Below, piece by piece: positions 10,234-11,244 of a stretch of DNA of 64,000 nucleotides. The position numbers and the translations under genes were made by a program. The stretch comes from Planktothrix tepida (GTDB lineage: Bacteria; Cyanobacteriota; Cyanobacteriia; Cyanobacteriales; Microcoleaceae): the NCBI RefSeq assembly GCF_904830955.1, contig NZ_LR882970.1; one strand, 5' to 3'. The notes beneath the pieces were generated by a model, which was given only the letters and a program-made list of their open reading frames with translations, was not told the origin of the DNA and ran no database searches. The stretch's first letter is position 1; the number at the start of each line of letters is the position of its first letter.

Positions 10234-11244
10234 TTAAGCTGAAAGAAAATCAGATGAAGAATAGCGGATTGTACTATTAGCTGTGGATACGTTACGAGCA
10301 ATCGCTAATACTTCACTATTATTACTGCTTAAAACAATTGCAGTATCATTAGCAGAATAGCCGTAAAGATTGCCAGGCTTAAGGGCATATTGACTTAAAC
10401 TACCTTGGATTTTGATATAGTCATCCCGCCAGTTGAAATCTTCAATGACAGCATGACCATTTCCTAAGTAACCTTTGCCGTAATAATCTCCAATCACAAA
10501 GGTATCTACACCTGCATCTCCTCTTAAGTAATCAATTTCTCCATTACCACCAAGACCACTGTAATAAAAGGCATCTAAGACATCGTTACCATTACCACCC
10601 GTTACGGTATCGTTTCCTGTCCAACCTAGTAATGAATCATTCCCATCATTGCCAAATAGTTGATCGTTACCACTATTACCATTTAGGGTATCATTTCCTG
10701 CTGCTCCTGATACAGTGTCATTTCCAGCTAAACTATTGATATTGTCGTTACCTGCACCTCCGGTAATATTATCGTTGCCAGATGTAGGAGTTCCCCCTGG
10801 AGGTGGAGTTGTTCCACCTGTTATCGGTACAAATTTCGCACTATTAAATGCAGTTGTTCCAGGATATACAGTGCGAGAGTTAAAATATTGTCCCGCCCAG
10901 TTGGCTTCTGATAAAGTGAATGAACCATCAGAATTAACTCGTTCCACAAAACCTACATGACCGACAGAACCGGCTCCCGCTTGCCCGGGATCCCAAACCA
11001 CAAAACTATTAGTTTGGGGTTGACGAGTCCATCCTCCCAAATTATCATCCCAGTAGCCAGCATTACCAAAGTATTTGGCTCCGAAACCTTGATTATTTTG
11101 AAATAATCCCTTTTCAATTGCACGACCATAAGCAAATTCAGTACACCAAAAAGTAGGATCATTGTTACCAGCAACAATCTTATTACCTGCCGCTTGATAG
11201 TTAATAGAACTAAGATTAATTCCAAAGTCTGAAGGACTAGGCAT
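10234..11244 (-). CDS. CHAP-domain (Cys/His amidohydrolase/peptidase) protein fused to RTX-type Ca-binding nonapeptide repeats; probable secreted peptidoglycan hydrolase
   Basis: The N-terminal domain has CTEFAYGRA (Cys) ... GHVGFVER (His), which is the CHAP pattern. The C-terminal half has repeated GGAGNDxIxG / GNDTLxG nonapeptides (hemolysin-type). There is no N-terminal signal peptide, which is consistent with T1SS-type export. Confidence 0.7.
   Translation of the reverse strand: MPSPSDFGINLSSINYQAAGNKIVAGNNDPTFWCTEFAYGRAIEKGLFQNNQGFGAKYFGNAGYWDDNLGGWTRQPQTNSFVVWDPGQAGAGSVGHVGFVERVNSDGSFTLSEANWAGQYFNSRTVYPGTTAFNSAKFVPITGGTTPPPGGTPTSGNDNITGGAGNDNINSLAGNDTVSGAAGNDTLNGNSGNDQLFGNDGNDSLLGWTGNDTVTGGNGNDVLDAFYYSGLGGNGEIDYLRGDAGVDTFVIGDYYGKGYLGNGHAVIEDFNWRDDYIKIQGSLSQYALKPGNLYGYSANDTAIVLSSNNSEVLAIARNVSTANSTIRYSSSDFLSA

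Follow-up and report, generated by a model that had tools for sequence, protein, structure and literature searches.

The stretch of DNA analysed here, hereafter the window, comprises 64,000 nucleotides of contig NZ_LR882970.1 from Planktothrix tepida, and the gene under study is located on its minus strand at positions 10234–11244. This gene has an ATG start and encodes a protein of 336 amino acids (aa) consisting of a CHAP head, a disordered Gly/Pro/Thr linker, eight RTX nonapeptides and a beta-rich C-terminal domain. It is embedded between STAND genes, as an earlier sequence-only reading of this DNA had stated, with a 467 aa STAND protein encoded downstream on the same strand and an 881 aa open reading frame (ORF) as its divergent partner. 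In the homologue search the product was 100 % identical to a Planktothrix entry named 'Iron-regulated protein FrpA' by NCBI, and the gene is already annotated, generically, as 'CHAP domain-containing protein'. Full-text literature searches returned no work on enzymes that join a CHAP or M23 head to RTX repeats, nor on an association of such enzymes with STAND proteins. The hydrolase and the STAND proteins each belong to known kinds. The conserved pairing with STAND genes, the exchange of N-terminal cassettes on a type I secretion system (T1SS) tail and the class-specific repeat arrays described below appear to be undescribed so far.

Architecture and export features of the hydrolase

The CHAP (peptidase C51) head spans aa 1–142 (10819–11244, minus strand). 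The Pfam model PF05257 matched aa 31–115 with 57.5 bits (E 2e-15, gathering cut-off 26), confirming the domain named in the sequence-only reading, while NCBIfam gave only partial matches to the 336 aa protein, namely to RTX toxins and staphylococcal amidases. The motifs CTEFAYGRA and GHVGFVER, read directly in the ORF, contain Cys34 and His96 respectively. The catalytic codons on the minus strand are Cys34 (11143–11145), His96 (10957–10959), Glu113 (10906–10908) and Asn115 (10900–10902). Among 24 aligned full-length homologues Cys34, His96 and Glu113 were invariant and Asn115 was nearly so (at least 90 %), and the four residues align with the CT(W/E)(Y/F), GHV(A/G)FVE and SE.N motifs of the solved CHAP domains 5t1q and 9eum. 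Neither the catalytic Cys nor the catalytic His is mutated, a possibility that had been raised for this gene. By these alignments the head is catalytically intact, and an amidase or endopeptidase activity is predicted for it.

The AlphaFold2 model (mean pLDDT 78) comprised a CHAP fold, a disordered linker at residues 143–152, a beta-roll and a C-terminal beta domain. In a Foldseek search the head was matched to the Staphylococcus aureus CHAP amidase 5t1q (root-mean-square deviation 2.1 Å over 116 residues) and also to 2k3a and the phi812 tail lysin; as modelled, it has a papain-like alpha+beta CHAP fold. The closest paralogues of the head are 60–66 % identical to it and are fused to wall-binding domains of the bacterial SH3 type, in support of peptidoglycan as the substrate of the head. 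The linker, GGTTPPPGGTP (10786–10818, minus strand), is disordered in the model, and its upstream end at 10818 is the right-hand breakpoint of the head swap described in the next section.

The eight RTX nonapeptides occupy aa 154–225 (10570–10785, minus strand) and were matched by HemolysinCabind PF00353 with 65.3 bits (E 4.6e-18, cut-off 23), so that the repeats claimed earlier are well supported. All eight units follow the form xxGNDxUxG in perfect nine-residue phase, and the model of this part shows regular three-residue strands every nine residues, corresponding to a parallel beta-roll. Both the RTX consensus GGxGxDxUx and the uncleaved C-terminal signal of T1SS substrates have been reviewed (PMC8277102).

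Following the repeats is a 111 aa beta-rich C-terminal domain, here called tail 1 (aa 226–336 and the stop codon, 10234–10569, minus strand). It contains degenerate repeats and a cap, together with a putative secretion signal of the uncleaved type, and its last residues are SSSDFLSA. Foldseek matched the tail to CyaA RTX block V, the serralysins PrtC and AprA, T1SS lipases and AlgE modules, with matches at the sequence level as well, and every structural relative of the tail found in this way is a T1SS substrate. Two related tail types were found in the wider family, and both have an invariant Asp-Phe pair 4–6 residues before the C-terminal end followed by mostly hydrophobic residues (DFLSA, DFITT, DFIFV, DFTFV). 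This ending resembles the Dxxx motif of Erwinia PrtG, reportedly described by Ghigo and Wandersman in 1994. At the other end of the protein, the first 33 residues (MPSPSDFGINLSSINYQAAGNKIVAGNNDPTFW) contain neither a basic n-region nor a hydrophobic core on direct reading, in agreement with the earlier statement that an N-terminal signal peptide is absent. Because the tail relatives are T1SS substrates, the Asp-Phe end is conserved and an N-terminal signal peptide is absent, we infer that the 336 aa protein is exported by a T1SS, and regard this as a strong inference.

The same order of N-terminal catalytic domain, RTX beta-roll with cap and uncleaved C-terminal signal (putative in the 336 aa protein), again with no N-terminal signal peptide, is found in T1SS exoenzymes such as AprA, PrtC and the Pseudomonas MIS38 lipase, and the modelled tail superposes on their structures. 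The differences from these enzymes are the CHAP head in place of a metalloprotease or lipase, the lack of an adjacent inhibitor gene or operon for an ABC transporter, membrane fusion protein (MFP) and outer-membrane factor (OMF), and the exchange of the head between strains.

Head exchange and conserved pairing with STAND genes

Homologues of the protein included full-length CHAP-RTX proteins, 42–78 % identical, in Floridanema, Laspinema, Microcoleus and Planktothrix agardhii, M23-headed proteins with a C-terminal half 92–96 % identical to that of the 336 aa protein, and one protein with an Amidase_6 head. All four combinations of CHAP or M23 head with tail 1 or tail 2 were found. The joining of CHAP to RTX repeats, previously considered unusual, is instead a recurrent, uncharacterised modular family in the Oscillatoriales in which, as judged from the alignments, the head is replaced like a cassette while the export tail stays constant.

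The head alone was exchanged at three syntenic loci. The first is the locus of the window, at which the window and its counterpart L170 carry a CHAP head and L171 (Planktothrix sp. FACHB-1365) an M23 head. The flanks share 92–95 % DNA identity, homology is lost only at window positions 10819–11238 (codons 3–142), and the gene order is epimerase, CpeT, DUF218, 444 aa TPR protein, 467 aa STAND, hydrolase, 590 aa STAND and kinase. No gene beside the hydrolase was gained or lost with the change from CHAP to M23 between the window and L171, which argues against a cognate immunity protein. The second is a P. agardhii-type locus (YidD, STAND, hydrolase, XisI-XisH), occupied by CHAP with tail 2 or by M23 with tail 1 (L005 versus L007). 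The third, preceded by three tandem Ser/Thr kinase genes, carries CHAP in Floridanema (L001) and M23 in Phormidium R1S1 (L010). Over the module from linker to stop codon (10232–10818), the window DNA is 89.8 % identical to the corresponding part of an M23 gene from the unrelated P. agardhii-type locus, with homology beginning at the same breakpoint, 10818, and stopping at the stop codon.

The recombination of alternative enzymatic domains onto a constant secretion scaffold is shared with MARTX and polymorphic toxins, from which this family differs in having a single small N-terminal head and no immunity cassettes. The head is N-terminal because the putative export signal is C-terminal. The clean head swap indicates that the evolution of T1SS substrates can resemble that of polymorphic toxins, except that the N-terminal domain is the variable one.

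To survey the genomic neighbourhood of the family, loci were collected from exact-protein look-ups, a genome scan and a scan of metagenomes with the portion of the tail outside the RTX repeats, and ORFs were classed by BLAST against reference domains. The genome scan, made with the whole RTX tail, caught RTX-repeat patterns, mostly of unrelated proteobacterial RTX proteins, and was useful only for L010–L015. Informative clusters were defined as CHAP- or M23-RTX loci, dereplicated at 95 %, with at least 700 bp of upstream DNA or a STAND gene already present there. In 13 of 16 such clusters a STAND gene lay on the opposite strand within 1.5 kb upstream, and the count rose to 17 of 20 after addition of the window with L170, of L171, of L173 (Amidase_6 head) and of L175 (Planktothricoides). 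For other proteins with a related tail, a STAND neighbour was present at approximately 6 of 60 loci.

The STAND partners are not orthologous, being 23–27 % identical to the STAND proteins of the window, and the outer flanks of their loci differ. Their cores consist of NB-ARC and tetratricopeptide repeats (TPR), or of NACHT and WD40 in the Planktothricoides locus. A predicted helix-turn-helix (HTH) domain was found at the N-terminus of every partner read, comprising all partners but one. Four kinds of HTH were distinguished: XRE-like (type A), XRE-like with an insertion (type A'), sigma-70 region 4-like (type B) and LuxR. The type-B partners carry PF26355 HTH_VMAP-M9 in precomputed annotation, and in the Planktothricoides partner a LuxR-HTH motif was read ahead of NACHT and WD40. 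Among the P. agardhii-type partners (L005 and L006 versus L007 and L008) the NB-ARC core is 95–100 % identical, the TPR region only 12–40 % identical, and the N-terminal HTH is swapped between type A and the sigma4-like type. The combination of conserved core, variable TPR sensor and swapped HTH is a pattern typical of immune-type receptors. A strict correlation between head type and HTH type was rejected, as M23 heads were found together with type-A as well as type-B HTHs. An arrangement of effector and NLR-like receptor signalling through amyloid motifs was also rejected, as inspection by eye found no motif shared between the SSSDFLSA end of the hydrolase and the HTH domains with which the STAND proteins begin. 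PADLOC gave no match for the hydrolase or the STAND NTPase modules, placing the STAND proteins outside known defence families; its matches were to generic TPR and, for the kinase half of the 881 aa ORF, to PD-T4-6 kinase models.

The intergenic DNA between hydrolase and STAND genes contains repeat arrays. In the window a candidate operator array of the heptamer AGATC(A/G)G lies at 11375–11414 (minus strand), with direct copies at 11405–11411 and 11395–11401 (10 bp start to start), an inverted copy at 11381–11387 and a degenerate fourth copy beyond. The heptamer occurs 14 times in 64 kb, three of them inside 31 bp at the array. The 20-mer TCAAGATCAGTTGAGATCAG (11395–11414) occurs once in the window against an expectation of 0.01, and its core recurs only at L098, L099 and L104, in the equivalent intergenic position. 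The element common to type-A' loci is ATTGTCAAGATCAGTT(T/G)AGATC(G/A)G followed by inverted GATCT copies, and AGATCRG arrays are confined to these loci, including the window. The type-A loci have approximately five direct TGAGCYATTTA units with a spacing of 12–13 bp, with CHAP or M23 heads, found nowhere else among 172 loci; a search of the window found this type-A operator to be absent and the AGATCRG type present instead. The LuxR-type locus has CTACACAA repeats. The arrays therefore follow the HTH class and not the head class. Near-identical non-coding motifs of 25 bp are kept between loci with hydrolases only about 40–50 % identical. The arrays look like operators for an oligomerizing activator.

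Directly downstream of the array in the window is a predicted sigma-70-type promoter for the hydrolase, a consensus match of the form ATGACA, 18 nt, TG-AATAAT (11343–11372, minus strand). A predicted promoter for the 881 aa gene (TTGACA, 16 nt, TATGGT) overlaps the start codon and is probably spurious. No Rfam match to a riboswitch or leader RNA was obtained for the upstream region in the window or at seven related loci. At the other end of the gene, 13 nt after the hydrolase stop codon, a hairpin was read in the sequence (GGGGTGAATGATT-TTTTATC-AATCATCTCACCCC, 10188–10221, minus strand). This hairpin is likely to act as a terminator between the hydrolase and the STAND gene that follows, although its T-tract is weak and a consensus terminator scan found no canonical terminator.

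The downstream 467 aa STAND protein (XRE-like HTH and NB-ARC/nSTAND3, 8683–10086, minus strand) is intact, and its position is the same in L170, the strain with the CHAP head, and in L171, the one with the M23 head. A 444 aa TPR protein (7343–8677, minus strand), also intact, begins 5 nt after its stop codon and is probably a split-off sensor module of the 467 aa protein. The divergent partner (11434–14079, plus strand) is an 881 aa ORF with an XRE-like HTH with insertion, NB-ARC, Ser/Thr kinase, a transmembrane segment and TPR. Its homologues are two separate proteins, a 590 aa HTH-NB-ARC protein and a 518 aa Ser/Thr kinase with a transmembrane segment and TPR, encoded by two overlapping genes in the Planktothrix chromosome LR882967.1 and in FACHB-1365. 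The window is 99.5 % identical to LR882967.1 and lacks 661 bp relative to it, with the junction at 12688|12689, resulting in an in-frame fusion of the two genes. Through this deletion the STAND protein has lost its last 172 aa, with its first 418 aa kept in the chimera, and the kinase has lost residues 1–56, including the glycine loop (GTGGFG) and the catalytic Lys of the VLK motif. The C-terminal TPRs of the chimera derive from the fused kinase gene; the intact 590 aa divergent STAND protein of L170 and L171 has no TPR match, and its relatives elsewhere have TPR or WD40. To judge from the residues lost, the 881 aa fusion is probably inactive or deregulated. As the divergent regulator is a deletion chimera, control of the hydrolase has probably been lost or altered in the strain of the window.

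A third STAND pair (14593–17344, plus strand) consists of a 470 aa protein with a sigma4/VMAP-M9-like HTH and NB-ARC (14593–16005) overlapping a 452 aa TPR protein, and is described as context only, with no direct link to the hydrolase claimed. A segment of 1637 bp (15545–17181) covering the end of the 470 aa STAND gene and most of the 452 aa TPR gene is absent in LR882967.1, which retains a shortened 364 aa STAND at this pair. The STAND genes of the cluster are decaying through deletions that differ between strains.

The partners resemble several characterized regulators. AfsR, which activates antibiotic production, has an HTH-NOD-TPR architecture and is phosphorylated by a kinase encoded nearby, AfsK (PMC10936776). 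The combination of DNA-binding domain, NOD/NB-ARC ATPase and TPR-like sensor is shared with AfsR, MalT and GutR, and the intact locus, with its HTH-STAND gene overlapping a Ser/Thr kinase gene, is comparable to AfsR/AfsK, as are the three kinase genes at the loci lacking a STAND neighbour. The cyanobacterial HTHs are XRE-like, sigma-70 region 4-like or LuxR rather than SARP. The likeness to AfsR is one of analogy and not of HTH homology. Unlike AfsR, MalT and GutR, the partners have as their presumed target a single divergent exoenzyme gene, and their sensor repeats are hypervariable between strains. Proteins with sigma70_r4, NB-ARC and TPR_MalT have been catalogued in cyanobacteria as atypical sigma factors (PMC11119718), an architecture matching that of the type-B partners (window 14593–16005; L007, L012 and L096); that survey reported no target gene or link to RTX hydrolases.

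A candidate inducible bacteriolysin and competing explanations

We propose that the gene encodes a bacteriolytic enzyme that is secreted and inducible, with an NLR-like transcription factor as its regulator. The CHAP-RTX protein would leave the cell in one T1SS step and fold outside on binding calcium. Its transcription would be driven by the divergent HTH-STAND protein, which would sense a signal through its repeat domain or partner kinase and oligomerize on the array beside the hydrolase promoter. The secreted enzyme would then attack exposed cell walls of other bacteria. The evidence shows the domain architecture, catalytic residues, fold, head swaps, STAND pairing and conserved arrays, and T1SS export, STAND control and the target organism are proposed from it. 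Our confidence in this chain as a whole is moderate; the architecture of the enzyme is far more secure than that, and the regulation and the target are less so.

Several observations weigh against this proposal. Regarding export, the C-terminal signal is putative and was judged by resemblance to those of T1SS substrates. No gene for an ABC transporter, MFP or TolC was found in the window (46 ORFs scanned, nearly all of at least 100–120 aa) or beside any homologue examined. Likewise, no genomic T1SS was placed in the organism, as no Planktothrix was present among the 120 HlyB-like matches listed of 2547. Regarding regulation, the arrays are nearest to the STAND start codon and perhaps serve only STAND autoregulation. 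The XRE-like HTH assignments are sub-threshold (Pfam HTH_3 E 0.011; PDB HipB/MBF1 E 0.06–1; PezA also weak). Three hydrolase loci have no STAND neighbour, those of Floridanema and Phormidium R1S1, which are both preceded by kinase genes, and that of Laspinema. The 17 paired loci are also not fully independent, many of the contigs being from related Oscillatoriales. Finally, an enzyme released beyond the outer membrane has no unaided access to the wall in Gram-negative neighbours, which affects the range of targets.

The description of the protein as a T1SS-exported peptidoglycan hydrolase fits its anatomy, in both tail relatives and Asp-Phe end, and lacks a matching T1SS gene in the window or a T1SS shown in the genome. 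We know of no predictor for C-terminal T1SS signals. HlyB-like ABC transporters are widespread in cyanobacteria, with 2547 matches. In addition, the window encodes two giant proteins with RTX and cadherin/Big_9 repeats on the plus strand, of 1211 aa (38470–42105) and 2250 aa (42251–49003). These are likely to be T1SS-exported surface or adhesion proteins and would need a T1SS, implying a working system in the organism. Of the earlier suggestions, the possible tie to the adjacent STAND system is the one most strengthened, by divergent HTH-STAND genes of different clades at 17 of 20 loci; in the window itself the divergent partner is a deletion chimera.

A broader form of the proposal is that filamentous cyanobacteria possess an NLR-like immune module with transcriptional output. 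In such a module a STAND receptor with hypervariable sensor and N-terminal HTH would detect an invader or non-self and induce a divergent T1SS-secreted peptidoglycan hydrolase with a strain-exchanged head, giving an inducible, diversifying antibacterial or anti-invader response distinct from known STAND defences with fused effectors. We put this forward tentatively, as a possibility that is less probable than the narrower proposal. The bacterial STAND and NLR-like proteins known so far either regulate metabolism or antibiotic production (MalT, GutR, AfsR) or sense phages and carry a killing domain in the same protein, and this family of loci suggests a bridge between the two, with immune-like receptors of hypervariable repeats and swapped modules having a DNA-binding output and being tied to a diversifying secreted lytic enzyme. 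The Avs and bNACHT systems share with it the STAND core, hypervariable C-terminal repeats, modular exchange of outputs and enrichment in multicellular bacteria (PMC13581612, PMC7159879). They differ in that their effector is fused to the sensor, whereas the loci described here have an HTH output and a separate secreted enzyme, with no PADLOC match. If the link is true, the loci would make it possible to test directly how multicellular cyanobacteria, bloom-forming Planktothrix among them, react when challenged by bacteria or viruses. They would also supply a natural set of CHAP, M23 and amidase lysins ready for export, together with defined candidate operators for STAND transcription factors.

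The hydrolase could alternatively be a suicide effector of NLR-like immunity, with the STAND protein sensing a phage or other invader and the hydrolase lysing the infected cell or filament segment in abortive infection or programmed cell death. The resemblance of the partners to immune receptors in P. agardhii-type strains (NB-ARC 95–100 % versus TPR 12–40 % identity) would fit such a role, as would heads swapped like the effectors of defence systems, with no immunity gene swapped along with them, and the match of the kinase part of the partner operon to PD-T4-6 defence kinase models. Predicted peptidoglycan-peptidase effectors also occur in conflict systems of multicellular bacteria (PMC7159879). 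However, the enzyme has no route to the periplasm of its own cell, which a T1SS architecture without Sec or Tat signal bypasses, and RTX repeats require extracellular calcium levels for folding. The STAND proteins and hydrolase are also without a PADLOC family match, and there are no phage genes nearby among the ORFs scanned and no relatives in the viral contigs searched. We consider this explanation unlikely.

Less likely again is that the hydrolase has no functional tie to STAND proteins and is a constitutive surface or extracellular wall hydrolase, acting in sheath or filament remodelling, filament breakage or debris scavenging, that happens to be located in a region rich in STAND genes and prone to recombination. 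Filamentous cyanobacteria have STAND genes in great abundance, with three units within 10 kb here, and a chance association would account for the three homologous loci without a STAND neighbour and for the intact hydrolase beside a broken divergent partner in the window. It would not be expected to give divergent pairing at 17 of 20 loci across STAND clades (NB-ARC-TPR and NACHT-WD40), three HTH classes and different outer flanks, nor near-identical 25 bp non-coding motifs in spite of the divergence of the hydrolases.

A classical bacteriocin or polymorphic toxin directed against close relatives, with self-protection by an immunity protein, is improbable. The reshuffling of heads and tails in all four CHAP/M23 and tail 1/tail 2 combinations, the allelic head polymorphism within Planktothrix and the small ORF cassettes at several related loci, including a protein of approximately 100 aa with a signal peptide, are all features expected of such toxins. 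The CHAP-to-M23 swap at the locus of the window, however, replaced codons 3–142 and no other gene; there is no small ORF beside the window gene, and the small cassettes found elsewhere do not follow head type. Furthermore, cyanobacterial targets are enclosed by an outer membrane, and the protein has no evident uptake domain. The inducible bacteriolysin proposed here can also be compared with secreted bacteriolysins such as lysostaphin, zoocin A and LasA, which are M23 or CHAP-type wall hydrolases that lyse other bacteria after release and are built from a catalytic and an accessory module. Those enzymes are equipped with Sec signals and with a targeting domain, SH3b or another, and immunity functions are present in the producing strains. 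In the window protein an RTX export tail serves as the accessory module, and the head comes without an immunity gene.

A remnant of a phage endolysin or tail lysin in a prophage is very improbable: the nearest phage relatives of the CHAP head are Staphylococcus phage tail-associated lysins at 35 % identity and the homologue in Laspinema has small unknown ORFs and an integrase gene around it, but no relatives were found in 2.9 million viral contigs and no cyanophage matched, the window neighbours are chromosomal (CpeT, epimerase, RtcB) with no phage structural gene above the Pfam gathering cut-off among the ORFs scanned, and RTX tails are not typical of phage lysins.

Additional observations at related loci and in the window

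Small-ORF cassettes are present between the STAND and hydrolase genes at many related loci, with none in the window. These include a 66 aa ORF beginning MSDPKDTARYDV (intergenic in L005, L006, L101, L091 and L092), an acidic ORF beginning MPEEYKGYDRER (intergenic in L108, L098 and L099), an ORF of approximately 100 aa with a signal peptide, beginning MKKFISVGTLILLG (L013, L098 and L104), and an 87 aa intergenic ORF in L173. The cassettes are independent of head type, the signal-peptide ORF being found with M23 in L013 and with CHAP in L098 and L104. They could be co-regulated cargo or protection factors. In L173 (3189–5548) the Amidase_6-RTX gene is shortened inside the tail to 263 aa, and adjacent transposase-type genes (DUF772 and DDE_Tnp_1_2) just downstream are the probable cause of the shortening.

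A conserved element of approximately 95 nt was observed directly upstream of tail-2 hydrolase genes, at L005 (7859–7965), L103 (4740–4846) and L098 (two copies). It was also present at L013, L096, L099, L101, L104, L108 and L173, and is not evident in the window. The element has 13 bp terminal inverted repeats (AGAGTTCAGTTA ... TAACTTTGAATTCT) and an inner hairpin (CCAACCCAT/ATGGGTTGG), and is duplicated ahead of inserted small-ORF cassettes. There was almost no covariation and no Rfam match, and an RNA structure is not claimed. The element may be a miniature inverted-repeat transposable element (MITE)-like element or a portable promoter module.

Secretion genes were found next to this STAND family at only one place, in the metagenomic relative L172 (1801–6803). 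There a pair of a 592 aa STAND and a kinase gene faces an insertion sequence (IS)-like HTH gene and not a hydrolase; the IS-like gene, which thus lies between, is followed by genes for an HlyB-like C39-ABC transporter (917 aa) and an HlyD-family protein (501 aa).

Within the window, a 740 aa protein without Pfam domain is encoded next to cemA (34272–37981), 23 kb from the hydrolase. The same pair is directly downstream of the CHAP-RTX gene in Floridanema (L001, 9091–12782), and may be the trace of an older shared neighbourhood. At 1769–4765 on the minus strand, a 656 aa ORF with a weak, below cut-off match to the C-terminal trimerization domain of phage T4 gp5 is followed by a DUF6575 protein and a 142 aa ORF without match; the 656 aa ORF might be a spike-like protein of a contractile system. 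A cyclic di-GMP signalling cluster is located at 50067–58037 and contains a GGDEF protein, a response regulator-GGDEF-EAL protein and a response regulator-GGDEF protein, adjoined by a serine recombinase gene (56742–58037).

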